DNA from: a virus
Taxonomy: Duplodnaviria > Heunggongvirae > Uroviricota > Caudoviricetes
Length of the DNA stretch: 64,000 bases
Reading direction: 5' to 3' (one strand)
IMG/VR virus record: IMGVR_UViG_3300044678_002996
Coordinates: 17,301 to 81,300 of that record
Positions 1 to 60,746 of this stretch are shown here, in pieces. How positions within the stretch are numbered: position 1 is the stretch's first letter; each line of letters opens with the position of its first letter. Both the position numbers and the translations under genes were made by a program. The notes beneath the pieces were generated by a model. It was not told the origin of the DNA, ran no database searches, and was given only the letters and a program-made list of their open reading frames with translations.

Positions 1-237
1 CGTTTTTATCTATCACTACGTATTTTTGTCGAGGATCTTTAGCATTTTCATTGAATGATTTCCAAGGAAGCCAAATTTCAGAGTGGAAAGACCCTACTTC
101 GAAAGCTAAGTCCGCCCCTTCGGCATGCCCAGAGCGTAGTGTGTAACCTATCTTGTCTAGGTGTTCGGCTATGCTTATCATTTGTCTTAAAATATTGAAA
201 GGCGTCTCGCGTGAACCGATGCCAGCATAATATTTCA

Positions 238-702
238 TTATACCATTCTCCAGTTAAAGGGGTCAGACTGCCCGCCACTAGTCCGCATAGTTAATGCCTC
301 TTCGCAATTTCCACAGTATACTGCTGATCCATAGAATGGAACAGCCCGCATTGGCCACGCCGGTTCTGAGCAATATAGACACACAAACTTATTGGCGGGG
401 TGCTTGTAGTAAGTCCATTTATACGAGTCTTTTAGCTCATTAAATTCTTCTGGGGAGAATCGTTTTGTAGCGTAGGCGTCTTCTTTTTCTATAACGTCTT
501 CCAAGTCTTTTACTAACTTCTTGGCTTCGCTAAGAGCCGTGGCCGCACAATTGATCATAGCCTCTCTTTTTGAATTGCCGCAGCCGACTGTCCATAGACC
601 ATCAACTATATGGCACTTATAGACTTGGCTGATAGATCCGTGAGTTTCTTCTACAGATAGATAGTATTTTCCGACTTGCATAATCTTTCCTACATAAAAC
701 AA
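238..702 (-). CDS. dsRNA-binding-domain-like protein with C-terminal Cys-rich (Zn-ribbon-like) region
   Basis: N-terminal segment VGCGNSKREAMINCAATALSEA matches the dsRBD alpha-helix signature GxGxSKKxAKxxAAxxAL. C-terminus carries CxxC...CxxC (CLYCSEP...CGNCEE). Confidence 0.45.
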   Translation of the reverse strand: MFYVGKIMQVGKYYLSVEETHGSISQVYKCHIVDGLWTVGCGNSKREAMINCAATALSEAKKLVKDLEDVIEKEDAYATKRFSPEEFNELKDSYKWTYYKHPANKFVCLYCSEPAWPMRAVPFYGSAVYCGNCEEALTMRTSGGQSDPFNWRMV

Positions 703-820
703 AGGATTACATTAGCAACAGTATAACAAAAATACAGGGCAGCTTTTGGAAACTCTCCATAGTAACTCTCGTAGATACAAGCTAAGAATTGTATTACTGC
801 TAATGCTACCATGAATGGGT

Positions 821-1117
821 TCATTTTGATTTTGTGATTATTATCTTTGGATTTAGGACATCTTCTACGCATATTGAAAGTGAAAATTTTTCTACATTAG
901 GATGTTTGGCTTTAGCGGCCTCTATTTCTTTACCTACCTTACGGTCAACGTAAGACCATAAGTCATACTTGTGCTGTAGCCCGAAACTAGGAAGTGAACA
1001 ATATAGTGTAGCGTCGCCATACAGTTTCAAAAACTCTTTTACGTGTTCTTTTGGAATAGTCACTTCTTCTCTTATTGGCGGTGGGGCCACTTCTTTTTTC
1101 TTGAAAAATCCAAACAT
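821..1117 (-). CDS. hypothetical protein (start trimmed to internal Met MFGFFKK so it does not overlap tRNA-Gly)
   Basis: ORF-track ORF 821..1171 overlaps the tRNA at 1142..1214. The internal Met at about 1117 gives a plausible start. Confidence 0.35.
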   Translation of the reverse strand: MFGFFKKKEVAPPPIREEVTIPKEHVKEFLKLYGDATLYCSLPSFGLQHKYDLWSYVDRKVGKEIEAAKAKHPNVEKFSLSICVEDVLNPKIIITKSK

Positions 1118-1141
1118 CCTAAATCCTCCAGTTAAAGTTAG

Positions 1142-1214
1142 TGCGGTTAGACGGATTTGAACCGACAACATCCGAGGTGGAAGCCCGGCGCTCTGCCAGT
1201 TGAGCTATAACCGC
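1142..1214 (-). tRNA. tRNA-Gly (anticodon UCC)
   Basis: Reverse complement gives the cloverleaf. Acceptor is GCGGTTA/TAACCGC. Anticodon stem is CCGGG/CTCGG with loop CTTCCAC (anticodon TCC). T-loop is TTCAAAT. Length 73 nt. Confidence 0.8.
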
Positions 1215-1385
1215 GTCGTTATAGTCTATAACAAAGAATGTCTTATTCTGTGACAATTTGCACTACCACGTTGTTTTTGTTTGTAAAATTTTTCAGTCGA
1301 TTTGACAATATTGCATTGTTTACATGTTTTTTCTTTTGCGTTTATAGCCGACATATCATACTCTATAAGTAAGTTTATTATAACA

Positions 1386-1459
1386 AGCGATCTAACGGGA
1401 TCGAACCGTCGTGACACGGGATTGAAAGCCCGCCGCTATACCATACAGCTCTAGATCGC
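1386..1459 (-). tRNA. tRNA with atypical predicted 8-nt anticodon loop (CUUUCAAU); identity uncertain (UUC-Glu-like or UCA)
   Basis: Perfect 7-bp acceptor GCGATCT/AGATCGC. D-loop contains GG. T-arm is GACGG-TTCGATC-CCGTT. Only the stem GCGGG/CCCGU pairs consistently, leaving an 8-nt loop. Confidence 0.65.
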
Positions 1460-1690
1460 AAAGGGATGATATAGTGCGTTGCAAAATATACAACTTGTCT
1501 CGATGTAGTTAATCACGTTAATCAACTAGTCGTCTATCACTATATTCCCATCACCCCTCAGGTCGCTCAGTAACTAGATGTTAGTTAAAATATCCCGGAA
1601 TCCTCGGGGCAAGGTGCGCCTTGTATAGGCGTGCTAGGGAATGCCTAATATTTTGGAAACATTTTAATCACTGCCCTCAATGAGAGTGAA

Positions 1691-1793
1691 CCGGCGTGGT
1701 AGGGGTTGAACCTACATATTACTTTGGGTTAAGTACTTTCCCATTTCATCTCGACTTTGGTGGTCGATGCGTTTACTATTTCGCCACACGCCA
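1691..1793 (-). tRNA. atypical tRNA-like gene (about 103 nt) with a roughly 35-nt extra arm; anticodon loop CACCAAA (CCA, Trp-like, A33)
   Basis: Acceptor TGGCGTG/CACGCCG (7 bp, U1-G72). D-arm GCGA...ACGC. Anticodon stem TCGAC/GTCGA. Canonical T-arm GTAGG-TTCAACC-CCTAC. Insertion lies between the anticodon and T arms. Confidence 0.4.
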
Positions 1794-1817
1794 AATTGCC
1801 CTTTCGGGCGGAAACCT

Positions 1818-2144
1818 CTAAGTTTTTAGCCAGTCTTGTACGTCCTGTAGACTAACAATATTTGTGGAGCCCCATATGAATGTTGAAATCTTACTATGTA
1901 ATCTCTTAACATCAAGTGGCTTTTCAGTCACCTCAGCGCTAGATTTAGGGCGGCCCTTTAGGAACGCCATAGCCAAATTAGCTAATCTAGCTTCAGGGCG
2001 AACCTTAAGCATACGGTGATAATGTAGGTTGTTTTTCGCCCCAACATCATTTGTCCGCCTAATTTCTTTCCTGATTATACCAGCTTCCGCCGCCAAAGAT
2101 TTGATGTTAACTCTTGCTCTTTTTATTGCCATTTTGTACTTCAT
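1818..2144 (-). CDS. hypothetical basic protein
   Basis: 108-aa ORF that follows the tRNA cluster. Confidence 0.4.
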   Translation of the reverse strand: MKYKMAIKRARVNIKSLAAEAGIIRKEIRRTNDVGAKNNLHYHRMLKVRPEARLANLAMAFLKGRPKSSAEVTEKPLDVKRLHSKISTFIWGSTNIVSLQDVQDWLKT

Positions 2145-2249
2145 TGTATTTACCCTTTTGAAAAATTGAAGAAAGAAAGAACTTAAACTATCTTCAATTA
2201 GGGCGGCGATTTATTGCATTCACATGAACTGCTTCATATTAATATCCTT

Positions 2250-2441
2250 TCATTTGTAAAGTTCTATTGGGACTTTGTATGTATGCTTGATATCTACGAC
2301 AATCAGTTTTGTAATGTTTGGCATTTCTTCGAGAAATTTACGCACGGCGTCTTCTAGGGTTGATTCATCCGCGTCTACAAAACTAAATCCCTCGGGGTTA
2401 GATGGGTAGTTTGCTTCGTACATGAAAATATACTTATTCAT
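2250..2441 (-). CDS. hypothetical protein
   Basis: 63-aa ORF, co-directional with neighbours. Confidence 0.3.
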   Translation of the reverse strand: MNKYIFMYEANYPSNPEGFSFVDADESTLEDAVRKFLEEMPNITKLIVVDIKHTYKVPIELYK

Positions 2442-2647
2442 ACGTTACAGCACCATGAGCCATCGCAATCCTCTTCGGTATTACTCCAACCCAGCTCCTC
2501 TAAAATACTCACATCTTCTTCCGATACATCTACATCTGTCTCGAACATATAGATGATATCGTGTTCCGCCGAGCAGACGTACTGGTTATCACTGTTATAA
2601 TACTTCTGCAGAATTTGCATACCTTTGATGATATTTGATGTTTTCAT
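2438..2647 (-). CDS. hypothetical acidic protein
   Basis: 69-aa ORF with a 4-nt overlap onto the downstream gene (translational coupling). Confidence 0.3.
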   Translation of the reverse strand: MKTSNIIKGMQILQKYYNSDNQYVCSAEHDIIYMFETDVDVSEEDVSILEELGWSNTEEDCDGSWCCNV

Positions 2648-2778
2648 TTTACTCTTTCTTTTCTGGCCCCGGTGGCTTTATATCATAAATCTTTTCGTAT
2701 TCGCGTTGTTCTTTTTTAGCTAGGTAATAATACCTGCAATTTAGACATACTATCTTGGGGCTGAGAAATGCCCAATCT

Positions 2779-3219
2779 TCAGTTGTTTTGCAGTATGGGC
2801 AAACTTTTACCATCTAAAACCTGTCTTCCATGGGTCATTTTAACAGTGTCGCCGTCTGGTGTGACCTCATACCAAATATCTTCCCACGGGCCCCTAAAGG
2901 TAAGGGCCCAAGTGTCACTATGAGATACAACCCTATGCACATTAGTGCGGGGTGTAAACTTAGGCCAGAAAGACGGCCCAAAATTTTTCTTTTCGCCCTG
3001 ATATTTCTCTTCAGTAACAGTGCCCCTCAGGAACCACGTCAGGGCATTAAACGCGTGGGAGTGATAGTTCTCGCGTGACCCCTTCTTGAAGTGTAGTAGC
3101 CCTATGGAGAATAACGCCTTCCACTCTATCAGGAAGTATCCCGTCACGCCAGATTCTTTTCCGCCGTCGAATTTCTTGTAGAAAAATTTCGGAATCCACC
3201 TGTGTTTAAAGAGACTCAT
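2779..3219 (-). CDS. hypothetical protein
   Basis: 146-aa ORF. Confidence 0.45.
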   Translation of the reverse strand: MSLFKHRWIPKFFYKKFDGGKESGVTGYFLIEWKALFSIGLLHFKKGSRENYHSHAFNALTWFLRGTVTEEKYQGEKKNFGPSFWPKFTPRTNVHRVVSHSDTWALTFRGPWEDIWYEVTPDGDTVKMTHGRQVLDGKSLPILQNN

Positions 3220-3397
3220 TCTTCAGCCCCATAACAACTTTCAAGACATTCCCAAGCGTTTGGTAAAGCGTCCCAAACTCCCAGAGGAGCCCCTTGGGGC
3301 ACCTCAAGAAGCAGGTAGAGACAATCCTCCCCATTTACGATACGTTCTGGCAAATTTATTCCGGCCCGCATTGTTTGATATGAAAATCTAAGTAATA

Positions 3398-3685
3398 TCA
3401 TTTTATTTCCCAGTCAAAAATACAATCACTATCAAAGTCAAGTACATCTTCAGGTGTTAGTCCAAATTTTTTCATGGCAAGAACAAATTCCTCTTTTATA
3501 AGCTTATGTCCGCCCAGATCATCTCCGTCAACATATGTACTTTCCCAAACCTCTTTCCACGTGCCAGCGTCGTCGTCAAACTTATAAATCTGCAAATAAG
3601 AATATCCGGGGTCGTAGTAATCATCCCCATAATCAGAACTGCATCCACCAGTCTGTAACTTATACTTATTCATTTTTCTCTCCAA
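3398..3685 (-). CDS. hypothetical acidic protein
   Basis: 95-aa ORF rich in D/Y/G. Confidence 0.4.
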   Translation of the reverse strand: MERKMNKYKLQTGGCSSDYGDDYYDPGYSYLQIYKFDDDAGTWKEVWESTYVDGDDLGGHKLIKEEFVLAMKKFGLTPEDVLDFDSDCIFDWEIK

Positions 3686-3694
3686 TTAAGTTAG

Positions 3695-3809
3695 TGGGCA
3701 AAGTTGGGTTCGAACCAACGAAATTTGTGGCCTCATGAGCTTATAGCCTACCACACAACAGACACTATCCGAAACCTGTTGTTTGCGTAATTCCTCTCGC
3801 CTTTTGCCC
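3695..3809 (-). tRNA. atypical tRNA-like gene (about 115 nt) with a roughly 40-nt insertion
   Basis: Perfect 7-bp acceptor GGGCAAA/TTTGCCC. D-arm GCGAGAGGAATTACGC with GG. Canonical T-arm GTTGG-TTCGAAC-CCAAC. Internal stem CAACAG/CTGTTG carries a 14-nt loop. Confidence 0.4.
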
Positions 3810-3991
3810 GTATGCGGTGTGTGAGACGCATCCCTCTTAGATCACTCGTGAGTCACCAACTGTTAGTGGCACCACAAAGCATCACCCGCACTTTCGTTAA
3901 ACATAATTAGGCCCTCTTATACCACATCATACTTCTGATGAAATTAAGAATGGCGTGAAAAGCTATACACACCCCTAGAAAATACATTGCA

Positions 3992-4468
3992 TTACTCATA
4001 TTTCTTGTAAACCCCGTCTGAGCATAACAGAAACATACCCTCGAAAGAAGAAAAATATCCTAGCCAATCTGCGTGGAACCTATCGCTACCAACAAGTTTT
4101 ACCAATTCTTTATAGTCTTGATCAAACTTATTTGTTACATCTCTTTTACAGTATTTGGGCTCAAACTGTAGTCTAAGGACCAACGATGCCACTTGGTCAG
4201 CTTTTTCTTTGCAAAACGGCCCTATATATTGGACATATCCATCCGTCCGCCCAAAGGTTCCCCCATCGCCATAGATAACCGCAAGCACGTAGGACTTATC
4301 CCCAACGGAACCAAACGTTCCATCGGGGTAATCCATCTTCTTCTCAGAGATATCAAACCAGTGATCGTAATGCTCTTCGTGGCTGAAGCCGCTGTACTCT
4401 GTGCCATCGCCTTCATCATGGTCACTACCTTGGCGAGTTTTGTAGTTACACTTTACATAGAATGTCAT
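3992..4468 (-). CDS. hypothetical protein
   Basis: 158-aa ORF. Confidence 0.45.
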   Translation of the reverse strand: MTFYVKCNYKTRQGSDHDEGDGTEYSGFSHEEHYDHWFDISEKKMDYPDGTFGSVGDKSYVLAVIYGDGGTFGRTDGYVQYIGPFCKEKADQVASLVLRLQFEPKYCKRDVTNKFDQDYKELVKLVGSDRFHADWLGYFSSFEGMFLLCSDGVYKKYE

Positions 4469-4472
4469 ATTA

Positions 4473-4967
4473 CTATCCTGAATAAGGGTTATTATAACCT
4501 ACGTCACAACCACAATCTCCCGTGCCAAATGAAAAGCCTCTTGGCGTTCCGCAGCACGGGCATTTTGGCGAATTCTCTTTGTATACTTTCCAGTATTTTT
4601 CTCTAGAGAGACCCCAAAGTCTATACTCTGTTTCATAAAATTCATTAGTCCCTGTACCACATTTATTGTCTGGGTGTTTGTGATATTTAGAACCTAATAG
4701 TTTGATGTCAATCTTATTACTTTGTCGTGGCCTAGCCGCAGAAAACTTGCTACAAACATGAAGTGTTTGATGATTATGCGTAAATATTTCATCATATAGA
4801 CGCCACTTGCCCTTATGATCTTTGTGCCAGTATAATCCACCTTTGCCGCAGAATTTACAGCTTTTTGATGATGGCCCAATGTTTTCTCTATGATCATATC
4901 CTACATCGTAGTTATCATCATATTCTTCGCCAAAGAAACCATCACCATTTAAGCCACCGTAAAACAT
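4473..4967 (-). CDS. hypothetical Cys/His-rich protein (possible metal-binding)
   Basis: CKFCGKGG...HVC and CPCCG...CGCD clusters. Confidence 0.45.
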   Translation of the reverse strand: MFYGGLNGDGFFGEEYDDNYDVGYDHRENIGPSSKSCKFCGKGGLYWHKDHKGKWRLYDEIFTHNHQTLHVCSKFSAARPRQSNKIDIKLLGSKYHKHPDNKCGTGTNEFYETEYRLWGLSREKYWKVYKENSPKCPCCGTPRGFSFGTGDCGCDVGYNNPYSG

Positions 4968-4972
4968 TTTGT

Positions 4973-6619
4973 TTATCCTTCACAACTCTTACACTCGTTA
5001 ATAGATCTACTCAAAGCTAAGGCTGGGTTGACGCCCTTCTGATAGTAAAATCCCTTAACTCCATTTTCCCACCCGAAGATAAGTAATTGACTTACATCCT
5101 TAGGGGGCGTTTTAGGGTGAATCATCAAGTTAAGGCTTTGGCCCTGATCAATATATTTTTGTCGTTGGGCCGCCAATATAACAACTTCCTTCTGGGAAAT
5201 TTCCCCGAATGTCTTGAACACATTTTTATCATGTTCATCCAAGAAGTCTAGATGTTGTACAGACCCACCGTTAGTTAGGATAGACCGCCAAGTTTCCTCA
5301 TTGTCCTTACTTTTTTCAGCAAGTAATTTCTTAAGGTAAGGGTTTTTGTAGGTGAAGCTGCCCTTTGCCAATTTTTTAACAAAGAAGTTCGAGTCAATGG
5401 GTTCAATGGTTTCACTGACTTGGCCCAAAATAAATGCACTTGATTTAGTTGGGGCAACTGCCATTCTTGTAGCCATTCTTTCGCCTGTTCCCACCATTAA
5501 CTCAGGTTCGCCGTACAACTCAGCCAACTCTTTGGACGCTTCCAGCGTCTGTTGATTAAGTGTCTTGAAAATTTCACCATTAAGATGTTTAGCTTCCATA
5601 CTCTCAAAAGCAATATTCTTACTTTGAAGTAGAGAGTGCCAGCCCAAAACCCCCAAACCTACTGCCCGCTGTCTCTTGGCAAAGTTGTGGGCCGCTGCCA
5701 TATACTTCAGGCCTACAGTCTTATTAATGTACTCGGTAGTCACCGTATCCAAGAAATAAGTCAGAACCTTAACAGCGTCTGTGTCTTTCCACTCATCATA
5801 ATGCAGTAGATTCATCGAGGACAGAACGCAGACAAATGATTCGTCGTCTGTGGCGGACAGATGTATTTCATTACAGAGGTTGCTGGCATGAATACGCTTG
5901 CCCTTGTTCTTATAAACCAGTGGGGCGTTGTTGTTAGAAGTGTCGCTGAAGAATAAGTAGGGATACCCACTCTCAAATCGCTTCTTGATGATCGCCCCCC
6001 AAACTCTGATTTTTTCTTTATCCTTATTCAGTAGTCCTCGCATCCATTCGTCGGAGATACAAACCCCAATAGAGAGATCCTGAATTGGGTTGCCCTCACT
6101 TCGGATTTTAAGGAACTCAAGAATATCTGGATGTTCTACGGGCAGATAGACAGCCATAGATCCCCGCCTAATATTAGACTGAGAAATTACAGAAGTCATC
6201 TTATCAAATAATTCCATGAAGTGTACTGGCCCACTGGACTCTCCACCACTTGAAATCTTCGCCCCACGGGCACGTAAGTCCCCAAAGTAGGCTGACGTTC
6301 CAGCCCCGTACTTCGTCATAAAACCTGTCTCAGCCACCTTGCTGAGAATAGAATCCATTGTGTCATTGATGTAACTTCCGTTACAAGAACACGGTAAACC
6401 TCTATCCAGCCCATAGTTCGCCCATACTGGTGAGCTTAAGGAAAACCATCCTCTACTCATGTATTCTTCGAACTTCGTCGCGTAACCCTCTATATTGAGA
6501 TATTTCTCTGCTGTTTTTGCAATTTCCAGAATTCTTTCTTCAGCAGTTTGGTCTTCGCGGACGTAGCCCCGAGAAAGGAATTCGCGTGATTTTTGATTTA
6601 GCCAGTAGTACTTATTCAT
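4973..6619 (-). CDS. nrdA: ribonucleotide reductase class I large (alpha) subunit, class Ib (NrdE)-like, N-terminally short
   Basis: Active-site NLCNEI motif. SGYPYLFFSDT and AVYLPVEHPDILEFL align to NrdE/NrdA core blocks. C-terminal CxxC tail (CKSCEG). No ATP-cone region present. Confidence 0.9.
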   Translation of the reverse strand: MNKYYWLNQKSREFLSRGYVREDQTAEERILEIAKTAEKYLNIEGYATKFEEYMSRGWFSLSSPVWANYGLDRGLPCSCNGSYINDTMDSILSKVAETGFMTKYGAGTSAYFGDLRARGAKISSGGESSGPVHFMELFDKMTSVISQSNIRRGSMAVYLPVEHPDILEFLKIRSEGNPIQDLSIGVCISDEWMRGLLNKDKEKIRVWGAIIKKRFESGYPYLFFSDTSNNNAPLVYKNKGKRIHASNLCNEIHLSATDDESFVCVLSSMNLLHYDEWKDTDAVKVLTYFLDTVTTEYINKTVGLKYMAAAHNFAKRQRAVGLGVLGWHSLLQSKNIAFESMEAKHLNGEIFKTLNQQTLEASKELAELYGEPELMVGTGERMATRMAVAPTKSSAFILGQVSETIEPIDSNFFVKKLAKGSFTYKNPYLKKLLAEKSKDNEETWRSILTNGGSVQHLDFLDEHDKNVFKTFGEISQKEVVILAAQRQKYIDQGQSLNLMIHPKTPPKDVSQLLIFGWENGVKGFYYQKGVNPALALSRSINECKSCEG

Positions 6620-17297: not shown

Positions 17298-17587
17298 TAA
17301 CATACGAACAGTATCTGGCAGAGTGTACTAGCAATGATACACTGCTATTTACCGGCAAGAGAAATAAAAAGAATAAGCCAATCAAAGAGAAGAGATTCAA
17401 CCAGACTCGTGATTTTATCGGCAAAGAAATTGCTAATAGTAATTACTCTACCAGAGAAGAAGCAGAGTCTGATCTCGAAATTAAAATACAGAAGATGGAT
17501 CCAGTAACTTTTTTCCTTTTTAGAGTCCTGATAGGATGGTTAATAGGAAAATTGTTAGATGGATATTTCGGCCTAAGAGACCAATAA
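17294..17587 (+). CDS. hypothetical protein with C-terminal hydrophobic helix
   Basis: 97 aa, 4-nt overlap coupling. Confidence 0.45.
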   Translation: MITYEQYLAECTSNDTLLFTGKRNKKNKPIKEKRFNQTRDFIGKEIANSNYSTREEAESDLEIKIQKMDPVTFFLFRVLIGWLIGKLLDGYFGLRDQ

Positions 17588-48523: not shown

Positions 48524-49234
48524 TCAGCCGAAATAATTCGGCGGGTCTTTGACAAATTCAAAGCCTTTACATTCTGGCGGGGCATCTTTGATCCTTAGCT
48601 TAGCGGAGTCGAATTGGCGACCAACCCTATCCATAAGTCTTAGTGATTTGTCTGGGTTGACTTTAAGAATCTTGAAAACAATTGTTCCATCTTCAGAGAG
48701 GGCCCATTGTTTTTTTAGTTTGACCTCAAGAAGATCCGGTGAGCAATCGATAATAGAATACCTGTAATACCAGAAAAGTTGTTGCTTACCAGCGTATTCT
48801 GTTTCGATTTTGTAAATGTAGTTCGGGTCGCCACCCGGACGACGAGATATGTCAATGATTTTACCATAACTGCCGATGAGGTCAGTCATAGCATCATCCC
48901 AGCTCAGATCGCCGTGTTTTTTTGTATGTCGACGAATAATTCTTACTGAGGAGCCCTTGGCGAATTTACCGTCATCCTTTACGAGAGAGTTCCCGTAGAA
49001 GACGTATTCAAACCAATTACCGTTATGTTTGAATTTGACGTTAAACATATCATAATCTGAGTTGTCTTCACATCTATCATAAACGGATGTGATTTCTCCA
49101 TGCAGATTGATATACGCGTAAAATTCATCGGACCATAGGTCATTTTCATCTTCGTCAGGGCTTTTAAAGATTATTACTCTGTCGCCCTTTTGATATTCGA
49201 AAAGATCACTCATAATGACTCCATAAAGCCCCAT
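48524..49234 (-). CDS. hypothetical protein
   Basis: 236-aa ORF. Confidence 0.45.
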   Translation of the reverse strand: MGLYGVIMSDLFEYQKGDRVIIFKSPDEDENDLWSDEFYAYINLHGEITSVYDRCEDNSDYDMFNVKFKHNGNWFEYVFYGNSLVKDDGKFAKGSSVRIIRRHTKKHGDLSWDDAMTDLIGSYGKIIDISRRPGGDPNYIYKIETEYAGKQQLFWYYRYSIIDCSPDLLEVKLKKQWALSEDGTIVFKILKVNPDKSLRLMDRVGRQFDSAKLRIKDAPPECKGFEFVKDPPNYFG

Positions 49235-49264
49235 ATTTCAGGGGCTTGTTCGAGGAATTAAAAA

Positions 49265-58106: not shown

Positions 58107-58108
58107 AA

Positions 58109-58136
58109 GTGGACCCGGCGGGAATTGAACCCGCGT
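58109..58136 (-). other. tRNA 3'-half fragment (T-arm + 3' acceptor strand) lacking a 5' partner
   Basis: GCGGG-TTCAATT-CCCGC followed by CGGGTCCA. No matching 5' acceptor strand within tRNA distance. Confidence 0.3.
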
Positions 58137-58341
58137 CTTGCATAAAAAAGAGCAATAGATTCGTTCACAAGTTTAGGGGCGAACGCCCCGGTTCAAGTGG
58201 ATATTACAGAACGTCCTCAATTTGGATAACAGGGCAATGAGGGGCCCCGAGACTATGCAGCCTGAGCAAAAGTTTTTGCTTTTATTTTTTAATCGACTTT
58301 TAAAGTGGCCGGTCGATCAACCACTACCTGCATCTATTACA

Positions 58342-58746
58342 CTATTTACCAATCAATACCTGTCGGGCCCGTGGTGGCACTTTGTCTGCCTTTTCAAGAT
58401 TACATAATTCACATAACACTTGTCTATTATCTGAAGAGTCTTTCCCTTCTCTTGCTATAGGAATTATATGGTCAACTGTCATAGCGACCAAATCTGCGGA
58501 GACTATCATAATACTCGGAAGAGACTTGTTAGTTCGTGGTTTGCCCACAAATATATAGTCGCCTCTACGAGGGCAATAAGAACATTTAGCCCCCATATTG
58601 ACCACCTGTTTGATTCTCCTTAATTTCCTTCCAAGTGATAGTTCACGAAATACTGCGATATCAAACGGGATTATTCTGTAATCAGAATATTTGATTAACA
58701 GATCAATTTCGGAAGAAAATAGGTTGTCGATACAAGTATTGTCCAT
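58342..58746 (-). CDS. HNH endonuclease
   Basis: CSYCPRRG...VDHIIPIAREGKDSSDNRQVLCELCN (HNH with Zn-ligand cysteines). Confidence 0.7.
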   Translation of the reverse strand: MDNTCIDNLFSSEIDLLIKYSDYRIIPFDIAVFRELSLGRKLRRIKQVVNMGAKCSYCPRRGDYIFVGKPRTNKSLPSIMIVSADLVAMTVDHIIPIAREGKDSSDNRQVLCELCNLEKADKVPPRARQVLIGK

Positions 58747-60040: not shown

Positions 60041-60556
60041 CTAGCTGTATAGCTCAAAGATATCAAGGGCCAGATTTCTCAGCTCTTGTTCAAGCTCCAC
60101 GTCAACTCCAGTAAGACACTCGTCTAACAGAAGAATAGATTCCTTGGCGTAGACAATAGCGAATCCGTCGCTTTCGGGCATTTCGTAGAGGTTATCAATT
60201 CGGTCGATTAGCTTAACAAGCTTTGATTCCGTCCGAATACCCTTGATTTTTTCCCGATTAGCTTTCTTTCGTTCAGCCCGATTGCCTTTGACATCTTTGT
60301 CGTTAGTGAGGTCTTCTACATATCCCTCTACTATGTGCCCAAAACAGAGGGCGATTTCAGACAGTTTTACACCGCAGTCTTCTACAACATCATGCAGAAA
60401 GGCCGCTGCTACCAATTGATTTGTAGCCATCCCATGAGTAGCTACGCGGCCCGCGACGCGAATCGGGTGTGTAATGTAGGGCCTGTTACTGTATTTACGC
60501 TTTTGCCCTTTGTGTTTTTCGGCGGCAAATTGGGCTGCATCAATGATTAATTCCAT
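60041..60556 (-). CDS. HD-domain small alarmone hydrolase ((p)ppGpp hydrolase, SpoT/Mesh1-like)
   Basis: AEKHKGQKRKYSNRPYITHPIRVA...AAAFLHDVVED matches the RelA/SpoT HD hydrolase N-terminus (HxGQxR...PYIxHP...HDxxED). Confidence 0.65.
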   Translation of the reverse strand: MELIIDAAQFAAEKHKGQKRKYSNRPYITHPIRVAGRVATHGMATNQLVAAAFLHDVVEDCGVKLSEIALCFGHIVEGYVEDLTNDKDVKGNRAERKKANREKIKGIRTESKLVKLIDRIDNLYEMPESDGFAIVYAKESILLLDECLTGVDVELEQELRNLALDIFELYS

Positions 60557-60557
60557 T

Positions 60558-60746
60558 TCAACCCCACACTAAAGCACAAATGGCAAACACTATGAACGCC
60601 ATTGATATGACGAATTTGATAAGGCCAGAGAGGCCAGAGATTCCTACGTCTCCGTTATCATCAGCTACGCCGACAATAAACAATAGAATTCCAAGACAGG
60701 CGTTCATTATCCAGAAAATCAGCGAGAGTATTACGAAAGCTTTCAT
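60558..60746 (-). CDS. small membrane protein
   Basis: 62 aa, two TM helices. Confidence 0.35.
   Translation of the reverse strand: MKAFVILSLIFWIMNACLGILLFIVGVADDNGDVGISGLSGLIKFVISMAFIVFAICALVWG

Follow-up and report, generated by a model that had tools for sequence, protein, structure and literature searches.

We analyzed a stretch of 64,000 nucleotides (nt) from a virus of the Caudoviricetes (positions 17,301 to 81,300 of the IMG/VR record IMGVR_UViG_3300044678_002996), referred to here as the window. Its minus strand encodes a transfer RNA (tRNA) with an 8-nt anticodon loop (1386-1459), downstream of the gene for a protein of 108 amino acids (aa). The tRNA and its 8-nt loop are conserved and supported by covariation, the linkage to the protein recurs in relatives, and equivalents with a CUA anticodon are found in cultured phages. 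We propose that the tRNA decodes UGA and is a suppressor-type member of a protein-linked family, a reading to which we assign a probability of about 0.55. This family of stop-anticodon tRNAs with an extra loop base is apparently widespread and undescribed. We infer UGA decoding, aminoacylation and any effect on the reading frame from the sequence.

Conservation of the eight-nucleotide anticodon loop

ARAGORN identified six RNA genes across the window. One of them, 74 nt long, was called as a tRNA-??? with the four-base anticodon 'ttca' at position 34, which is the program's notation for an 8-nt loop. In minus-strand sense, the first half of the gene reads GCGAUCU-AGA-GCUG-UAUGGUA-UAGC-G-GCGGG-CUUUCAAU-CCCGU and the second half GUCAC-GACGG-UUCGAUC-CCGUU-AGAUCGC-U. 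CCA is not encoded. An initial annotation had proposed the 8-nt loop, placed it at 1421-1428 and enclosed it in a GCGGG/CCCGU stem. The minus-strand sequence agrees with this placement, and both the loop and the stem are borne out by the ARAGORN call and by the covariation described below. All other arms had been described as canonical. This holds for the T-loop UUCGAUC but not for the connector between the acceptor and D stems, which is 3 nt long (AGA) instead of 2 and lacks U8. Equivalently, A8-U66 can be used, giving an acceptor stem of 8 base pairs (bp) and a T stem of 4 bp. C50 faces U66 in L055, L044 and L048-50, which favors A8-U66 and the 8/4 split; no co-variation is found there. The connector is AGA in the clade of the window and 1 nt long in L046, L052 and L051. 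A His-like reading of the 8-bp acceptor, with a G-1:C73 pair, was dropped because bases -1 and 73 vary among orthologues.

Table 1. Features at and around the tRNA gene, in window coordinates
Feature	Position	Strand	Basis
8-nt-loop tRNA	1386..1459	-	ARAGORN; Rfam RF00005; identity in L001/L003; covariation
tRNA acceptor, 5' strand	1453-1459	-	sequence
tRNA anticodon stem	1429-1433 with 1416-1420	-	GCGGG/CCCGU
tRNA anticodon loop CUUUCAAU	1421-1428	-	sequence
Proposed anticodon UCA	1423-1425	-	within loop CUUUCAAU
tRNA T-loop UUCGAUC	1399-1405	-	sequence
Partner gene, 108-aa protein predicted to be all-helical	1818..2144	-	homologue series; tRNA adjacency; AlphaFold2 model
Odd tRNA-like gene, located between partner gene and 8-nt-loop tRNA	1691..1793	-	Rfam RF00005, 39.1 bits; E-value search
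Promoter-like TTAACT-16-TATATT	1485..1512	-	about 25 nt upstream of the tRNA 5' end; consensus scan
tRNA-Gly (UCC), ordinary, downstream in the same cluster	1141..1214	-	ARAGORN; Rfam, 67 bits; canonical internal control

The window tRNA is 100% identical in two independent assemblies, L001 (JGI) and L003 (ENA), which were reached via the exact sequence of the 108-aa neighboring protein. In L003, the spacers on both sides of the tRNA are largely unalignable to the window. More distant relatives were reached with graded homologues of the protein, from 90% to 40% identity. Twenty distinct relative sequences were aligned (alignment A6) and pairing was counted in the D, anticodon and T stems; misaligned acceptor columns were omitted. 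In the 8-nt register, 97% of the cells in the anticodon stem are paired, and all five pairs have changed on both sides. Single stems are 90-97% paired, the three together 94.6%, and 12 of the 14 pairs are doubly changed. When the 3' partners are slid by -1, which gives a 7-nt register in the anticodon arm, pairing over the three helices drops to 44.3%. The observed values were reached by none of 500 shuffles. The T stem shows a compensatory change from A51-U65 to U-A (L041, L055). The acceptor stem is paired at 7/7 positions in 22 of 24 sequences, a count for which pairing was itself a selection criterion of the script, and compensatory changes are found from A4-U70 to G-C (L041) and from G3-C70 to A-U (L055). 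The loop has 8 nt in 20/20 aligned relatives and in every other protein-linked UCA-type relative examined. GC content of the carrier lineages ranges from about 40% to over 60%.

Rfam RF00005 scores the window tRNA at 32.2 bits, a marginal pass against the gathering score of 29, and the ordinary Gly, Gln and Lys tRNAs of the same phage at 65-70 bits. Its alignment of the window tRNA forces a 7-nt loop and two non-standard pairs. A covariance model thus does return the 7-nt loop that the initial annotation regarded as contrary to its proposal, but the covariation supports the 8-nt register, and we therefore reject this alignment. The low score and the acceptor-D linker, with its unusual length of 3 nt, are also what a degenerate pseudo-tRNA or an assembly error might produce. 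This explanation, to which we give next to no weight, is refuted by the 100% identity in independent assemblies with diverged flanks, by compensatory substitutions in three helices across 20 lineages, and by the conserved synteny with the protein. A sequencing indel, also raised at the outset, is refuted because the tRNA is identical across the independent assemblies and 8 bases are kept in the 20 aligned and all other protein-linked UCA-type relatives examined, none of which has one T fewer.

ARAGORN misses several relatives owing to other deviations, for example the T-loop AUCGUUA in L044 and L048-50. In L044:4547-4620, L048:4517-4590 and L050:4505-4578, this T-loop replaces UUCGAUN, and positions 54 and 58 are exchanged from U..A to A..U, an apparent compensation of the reverse-Hoogsteen T54-A58 pair. 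A megablast search of window positions 1-6000 against GenBank phages and a search of IMG/VR for the exact 21-mer spanning the T arm and acceptor both gave no match.

The loop consensus is N-Y-U-U-C-A-A-N, and columns 3-7 (U-U-C-A-A) are invariant in the 20 sequences. Position 2 is U in 18/20 and C in the other two, L064 (CCUUCAAU) and L067 (ACUUCAAA). Positions 1 and 8 vary jointly (C..U, U..C, A..A, A..C) and are never complementary. Ordinary tRNAs have a pyrimidine at position 32, a near-invariant U33, a purine at 37 and a variable 38. We read the anticodon as UCA because this pattern, Y32-U33-NNN-R37-N38, maps onto the loop only with UCA. Loop positions Y2, U3, A7 and N8 then correspond to 32, 33, 37 and 38, and the extra base is the first, at position 31.5. 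UCA is flanked by U33 and a purine at 37, as in opal suppressors, in all 20 sequences. The L067 loop is A + CUUCAAA, which is a classical opal-suppressor loop with one extra 5' base. The members of the 8-nt family share with SufJ, a frameshift suppressor discussed below, an extra nucleotide at 31.5 that enlarges the loop to 8 nt, and by this analogy the joint variation of loop positions 1 and 8 would fit a SufJ-like contact between 31.5 and 38. If UUC or UUCA were the anticodon, the base at 'U33' would be C in L064 and L067. A UCA reader is the best supported of the four options that the initial annotation had listed.

We also compared the family with tRNA-Sec, using as criteria a 13-bp acceptor/T domain, a 6-bp D stem, a long variable arm and the anticodon UCA. 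The 8-nt family has a variable region of 3-6 nt, acceptor and T stems of 12 bp in total, and a D stem of 4-5 bp, so that the anticodon is the only agreeing feature. Membership in the tRNA-Sec or allo-tRNA class was ruled out, since the long variable arm is lacking.

Linkage to a small protein in metagenomic and cultured phages

Beyond what had been noted initially, the tRNA is one half of a conserved pair of a tRNA and a protein gene. It lies close downstream of the protein gene in 12/12 metagenome lineages derived from the protein. A pattern scan of IMG/VR for the 108-aa protein alone returned nothing; a profile scan returned nine loci, and at all nine an 8-nt N-Y-UUCAA-N tRNA starts 10-30 nt after the protein gene. 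We also scanned IMG/VR for the tRNA pattern, defined as the hairpin GGGCTTTCAATCCC followed by the T-loop, which gave 35 loci. The protein is encoded at at least 20 of these loci, found by the tRNA pattern alone. In most of these mutually unrelated contigs, the flanking open reading frames (ORFs) include a protein homologue directly beside the RNA. Six of the 35 are tRNAs called 'ttca' by ARAGORN, five are ordinary tRNA-Glu (GGGG-CUUUCAA-UCCC, with a G31-U39 pair), and about 20 are tRNA-like genes of 65-70 nt without a D stem.

A metagenome scan added the orthologue L055 and a soil clade (L054, L056-58). Soil clade members have a canonical body, with U8-A9 and encoded CCA, and an identical 8-nt loop. 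Their stems show compensatory changes (GACGG/CCGUC versus GCCAG/CUGGC), and the protein is found upstream of the tRNA in L054, L057 and L058. We defined the module as a UCA or CUA tRNA gene that has, at a distance of no more than a few hundred nt, a gene for a homologue of the 108-aa protein. The window has the module, which is present in 26 of the 27 lineages examined; the exception is phage NCTB, in which no tRNA was seen near the protein gene.

The roughly 20 genes without a D stem (L006, L008, L009, L013, L020, L025, L032, L033, L037 and others) have a 7-bp acceptor, a T arm and an encoded CCA. Their D arm is replaced by an unpaired stretch similar to UCAGGNGAG, and GGG-CUUUCAAU-CCC forms the end of a longer, bulged arm. 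Most of them adjoin the partner protein family. Apart from two at the Rfam threshold, they are called by neither ARAGORN nor Rfam.

The window protein carries the motifs RVNIKSLAAEAxIIRxE ... LHxHRxxKVRPEARLANLA, and those shared by the homologues at the IMG/VR loci are LKVKIKSLAAEARIIRxEE ... HRxxxVRxEAR...LAYGxLRG. The family has at least 485 members, all 'hypothetical' and none with a Pfam domain. The partner protein has no match by sequence in Pfam, PHROGs, PADLOC or PDB, and its profile has none in 185,579 cellular (GTDB) genomes. The AlphaFold2 model (predicted local distance difference test score 95.5) consists of a long helical hairpin (residues 4-30 and 34-62) and three short helices. 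Foldseek searches of PDB and BFVD returned uncharacterised viral family members only. A possible pairing of conserved 'LKV' codons with the anticodon loop was dropped, because the motif is lacking in the window protein.

Homologues of the protein were found by tblastn in the GenBank genomes of Stenotrophomonas phages DLP3, DLP5 and Summit, Ruegeria phage DSS3_MAL1, Agrobacterium phages OLIVR1-3, Synechococcus phage BUCT-ZZ01 and phage NCTB. Profile-profile comparison with hhalign relates the window-type and cultured-phage subfamilies with a probability of 99.8% (E=1.8e-27). In DLP3 and DLP5, a CUA tRNA (loop CUCUAAA) lies 7 nt downstream of the protein gene and is followed by a separate, normal tRNA-Glu. 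In DSS3_MAL1 and BUCT-ZZ01, a CUA tRNA is located just upstream of the protein gene. In OLIVR1, this position is taken by a tRNA whose 8-nt loop, GCCCUAAC ('ccta' in ARAGORN), carries the amber anticodon CUA. Summit encodes one amber suppressor tRNA, known here from its paper (PMC9022506), and 'Sup-CTA' is listed for these Stenotrophomonas phages (PMC7326821, PMC9022506). The D-arm of the DLP3 CUA tRNA (UAGCUGAGAGGUUCAGCA) is nearly identical to that of the 8-nt UCA tRNA in the soil locus L054 (UAGCUGAGAGGCUUAGCA). Because the neighbors of the protein are UCA or CUA tRNAs, the constant trait of its partner is a stop anticodon, and the arm that carries this anticodon is often enlarged or irregular. 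The neighboring protein is not mentioned in the phage suppressor-tRNA papers cited here (PMC7326821, PMC9022506, bioRxiv 10.1101/2021.08.26.457843). The literature searched held nothing specific on phage tRNAs with 8-nt loops or on the protein-tRNA pair.

ARAGORN labels such tRNAs '???', 'Glu' or 'Pyl', or misses them. Two GenBank labels are seemingly wrong. The CUA tRNA at MT110073 (DLP3) 49181-49254 is labelled tRNA-Glu, and the tRNA with the GCCCUAAC loop at MT234338 (OLIVR1) 40274-40347 is labelled tRNA-Val.

Predicted decoding of UGA and its alternatives

In the proposed mechanism, the tRNA would be transcribed from the tRNA cluster and CCA would be added post-transcriptionally. In the A site, its UCA anticodon would pair with UGA in competition with release factor 2, and an amino acid would be inserted instead of termination. 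The putative amino acid is most plausibly Trp, because C35-A36 is common to tRNA-Trp. With a SufJ-like insertion at 31.5, read-through may continue in the 0 frame or slip to +1. The neighboring protein presumably works together with the tRNA, which it might bind, gate or protect.

The window is part of a large phage genome with a GC content of 42% and is about 89% coding under the standard code. Of its 107 ORF-called genes, 92 are on the minus strand. Recognizable genes include those for ribonucleotide reductase, NadV, RNA ligase, a glycosyltransferase and transfer-messenger RNA (tmRNA). No structural genes are recognizable in the window, which holds early and auxiliary genes only. A search for the late genes of a relative via P0032 added only further early-type genes.

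Several observations weigh against UGA decoding. The discriminator base 73 is U, G, A or C and the acceptor stems vary freely; no known identity set is conserved in the 8-nt family, that of Trp (G73) included. The roughly 20 members without a D stem cast doubt on all members being decoders. TGA is an ordinary stop codon in 41 of the 107 window genes (TAA 42, TAG 24), and TGAA is its commonest context (18/43 in a second ORF call). Read-through fusions at UGA-A, in frame or +1, occur in the window at chance level only, and reading TGA as sense brings no gain in coding density in the window or in the AT-rich loci tested. The late genes of DLP5 are intact under the standard code with no TAG recoding, and 4/69 of its genes end in TAG. 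For Summit, the authors report no target for the amber suppressor and an unknown purpose (PMC9022506). Two further points, the shared loop 8-mer and the gene order in DLP5, concern tRNA-Glu and are given below.

The high use of TGA as a stop argues against recoding in this genome. Recoding may still occur elsewhere in it, because the window holds no late genes; in recoded phages, recoding is concentrated in late genes and replication genes use the standard code (bioRxiv 10.1101/2021.08.26.457843). The density test with TGA as sense picked out two GC-rich loci, a result that we read as a composition artefact. The only credible signal for TGA or TAG as sense was TAG in L005 (IMGVR_UViG_3300000301_000012). 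This contig encodes CUA and UUA tRNAs, and its coding density rises from 0.66 to 0.78 with TAG as sense. It is probably from an amber-recoded phage and is unrelated to the protein-linked family.

The initial annotation had offered a Glu (UUC) tRNA with a one-base insertion as an alternative. Such a tRNA, with its loop enlarged by one base at the 3' side, would read the GAA triplet and supplement A-ending codons. Its odd loop might evade host anticodon nucleases; nuclease-evading phage tRNAs with anticodon-loop changes are known (PMC10264068), and the window phage encodes an RNA ligase. In some lineages, positions 32-39 of ordinary tRNA-Glu have exactly the loop 8-mer CUUUCAAU; CUUUCAA-U forms the loop plus U39 in cellular genomes and other phages, often with flanking GGG/CCC. 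The other tRNAs of the phage read A-ending codons (Gly-UCC, Gln-UUG, Lys-UUU), and no canonical tRNA-Glu is found in the window. Glu and Gly tRNAs are adjacent in other phages. In DLP5 the order is protein, suppressor, Glu, Gly, so that the window tRNA could match the position of tRNA-Glu. The yeast mitochondrial tRNA-Thr(UAG) illustrates that an 8-nt-loop tRNA can read triplets (PMC3113583).

To compare the two classes, we scanned the 185,579 cellular genomes, as a control, with the 14-mer and T-loop pattern already used for IMG/VR. The matches comprise 29 ordinary tRNA-Glu, all with a fourth G, a perfect 7-nt register and a Glu-type D-arm (..AGGAC). Three matches that are not Glu-like (L086, L097, L101) were set aside as chance matches inside other sequence. 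The partner-protein motif was not found near the control matches in cellular genomes. For this hairpin sequence, the 8-nt protein-linked class was found only in viral or metagenome contigs. Just before the anticodon stem, 29/29 cellular tRNA-Glu and all six phage tRNA-Glu compared (L005, L030, L034, L038, DLP3 and DLP5, with the same or a similar loop sequence) have the Glu-type D-arm, with AGGA as its 3' strand; 0/20 of the 8-nt tRNAs do. This type of D-arm is the 'augmented D helix' used by E. coli GluRS. The canonical tRNA-Glu also differs from the window tRNA in its 5' GGGG, G31-U39 pair, 7-nt loop and lack of a partner protein. In addition, a UUC anticodon would have C instead of U33 on its 5' side in L064 and L067, and the tRNA beside the homologous protein in cultured phages is CUA, with a separate normal tRNA-Glu in DLP3 and DLP5. 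The Glu assignment is therefore disfavored, and we consider it improbable. The 8-nt family could have arisen from such a tRNA-Glu by loss of one stem base.

A true four-base decoder ranks just below tRNA-Glu in our estimate. In this case UUCA would pair with UGAA (or UGAG), and each event would shift the frame by +1 and make fusion or extension products. The default ARAGORN reading of the loop is 2+4+2, engineered quadruplet decoders have loops of the form CU-NNNN-AA, and UUCA is invariant in the 20 sequences. In the window, the genes at 60558-60746 and then 60041-60556 are joined as TGA-A-ATG, and a four-base reading would fuse both. However, the base 5' of such an anticodon, at the place of U33, is C in L064 and L067. 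Long +1 extensions are found for 5/18 TGAA-terminated genes, which equals the chance expectation for neighboring genes, and TGAA is not avoided as a stop context. Structures of SufJ and SufA6 show 8-nt loops reading three A-site bases (PMC4238358). The tRNA may still be a natural +1 frameshift suppressor, as suggested initially; its extra base is at the SufJ site. TGA-N junctions in the window show no surplus of +1 continuations, and none was conspicuous as a +1 target.

The RNA may also not decode at all. It might be a tRNA-shaped RNA that forms a ribonucleoprotein with its protein neighbor, or a decoy, and might for instance counter a host defence aimed at tRNAs or act where ribosomes pause at stop codons. 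We regard this as unlikely, but it is the strongest of the alternatives to UGA decoding. The genes without a D stem, which have a long bulged arm and encoded CCA, keep both GGG-CUUUCAAU-CCC and the partner protein, and the lack of conserved aminoacylation identity elements is in line with such a role. So is the proximity of tmRNA genes. The window phage encodes a tmRNA (58107-58370, minus strand, tag AKTFAQAA), and one is located directly beside the module in L064 (1107-1361, tag AKSFAVAA) and in BUCT-ZZ01. In L004 a tmRNA gene (2468-2908) lies directly upstream of the tRNA-like element, and in L029 one is about 1 kb away. This proximity hints at a link to stalled or terminating ribosomes, or may merely reflect clustering of RNA genes. 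A tmRNA gene is present at L074:2250-2668. Against a non-decoding RNA, the variable 32 and 38 and the invariant U33, anticodon and A37 are predicted by decoding and not obviously by a protein-binding site. The anticodon switches between two stop anticodons, UCA and CUA, and the T-loop, the GG of the D-loop and the 7-bp acceptor stems are maintained.

Other features lie near the module. The tRNA-like gene at 1691-1793 has the anticodon loop CACCAAA (Trp anticodon CCA, with A at 33) and an insertion of about 32 nt in the variable region. It is missed by ARAGORN and is 100% identical in L001 and L003 despite diverged flanks; whether it is part of the module is uncertain. A GNRA-type hairpin, GCCC-GAAA-GGGC (1798-1809, minus strand), directly follows the TAG stop of the partner gene, precedes the tRNA-like gene and is kept in L001 and L003. 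Upstream of the 8-nt-loop tRNA, a block of about 110 nt (1470-1590, minus strand) is kept between the window and L003, and the adjoining spacer is not. Within the block are a direct repeat, GATTAAC-GT-GATTAAC, and the promoter-like site of Table 1. The number of promoter-like sites is not above shuffle expectation, and the evidence for this one as a promoter is weak.

Relatives of the window carry an additional odd tRNA, absent from the window, at about 120 nt on the upstream side of the protein gene. It is found at L003:582-651, L039:3808-3877, L041:3805-3874, L047:3656-3725 and L052:114-183, with anticodon loops of 4-6 nt (AACUUA, AGCUUA, GGCUUA and others), and is called 'ct' or 'gcat' by ARAGORN. 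Another tRNA, called 'aaac', is located at L046:7757-7836 and L047:7604-7683 and has a further non-standard anticodon arm within this phage lineage, with a 7-bp anticodon stem (AGCUAAC/GUUAGCU) and a loop of about 10 nt. In the L064 lineage, L075:18744-19313 encodes the arginyl-tRNA-protein transferase C-terminal domain (PF04377, ATE_C) about 9 kb from the module; members of this family are aminoacyl-tRNA-using enzymes.

Comparison with known tRNAs and implications

To our knowledge, natural tRNAs with 8-nt loops are rare, and the well-studied cases are organellar or laboratory mutants. In crystal structures of Salmonella SufJ, a tRNA-Thr that carries C31.5 as an insertion, positions 33-37 are shaped as usual, decoding covers three bases in the zero frame, and the extra C forms a pair with position 38; the +1 shift occurs later (PMC4238358). 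The window tRNA resembles SufJ in having one extra base between the 5' stem strand and position 32, which gives an 8-nt loop, together with a normal U33-anticodon-R37 core. The first and last loop bases of the family co-vary as non-Watson-Crick combinations (C..U, U..C, A..A, A..C). SufJ is a mutant sense tRNA from the laboratory, has the anticodon GGU and reads ACC-N. The window tRNA, known from its sequence, is natural, conserved in many phage lineages, and has a stop anticodon and a dedicated protein.

Two organellar tRNAs are also comparable. The yeast mitochondrial tRNA-Thr(UAG) has an 8-nt loop, UUUUAGGU, and is likewise natural and conserved. It is a genuine decoder, and an 8-nt loop alone does not imply quadruplet reading (PMC3113583). 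Unlike the window tRNA, it is organellar, reads CUN triplets, is derived from tRNA-His and has no partner protein. The Vischeria mitochondrial tRNA-X (8-nt loop, 'UUAA') is a natural expanded loop with a stop anticodon and has been proposed as a suppressor, with rps3 as the candidate target (PMC4824035). It is a single organellar case, whereas the phage family described here is large and no target is identified.

Among phage tRNAs, the window tRNA is similar to the Sup-CTA tRNAs of DLP3, DLP5 and Summit (PMC7326821, PMC9022506) in having a stop anticodon. It shares with DLP3 and DLP5 the location near a homologue of the window protein (7 nt after it in those phages). As in Summit, targets are not apparent, and the standard code applies in this part of the genome. 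The window tRNA carries UCA and its loop has 8 nt, whereas these Sup-CTA tRNAs carry CUA and, in the Delepquintavirus phages, have a loop of 7 nt. Unlike the suppressor tRNAs of stop-codon-recoded phages (bioRxiv 10.1101/2021.08.26.457843), it is not accompanied by recoding detectable in the window. Phage suppressor tRNAs and suppressors with a 31.5 insertion are thus known; their natural combination and the linkage to a protein were not found in the literature searched.

The family brings together a conserved 8-nt loop, the SufJ insertion site and a stop anticodon across many unrelated phage lineages. The tight linkage to the protein points to a dedicated stop-codon function that annotation has overlooked. 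It also provides a concrete handle on the 'unknown purpose' of the suppressor tRNA in Summit, DLP3 and DLP5. Carriers are in culture (DLP3, DLP5, Summit, BUCT-ZZ01, OLIVR1 and DSS3_MAL1), which makes direct experiments possible. Many phage suppressor tRNAs may be non-canonical and missed (bioRxiv 10.1101/2021.08.26.457843), and tRNAs of the type described here could explain the undetected suppressor tRNAs of many recoded phages. They would also be natural parts for genetic-code expansion.

In a fuller form of the proposal, the pair would be a two-gene recoding device, in which a SufJ-type tRNA reads UGA (UAG in the CUA versions) and shifts to +1, and the protein controls or enables it. This is doubtful, and we rank it between a non-decoding RNA and a tRNA-Glu. 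If it is true, these phages would possess switchable stop-codon read-through or frameshifting of phage or host genes, with the genetic code unchanged.

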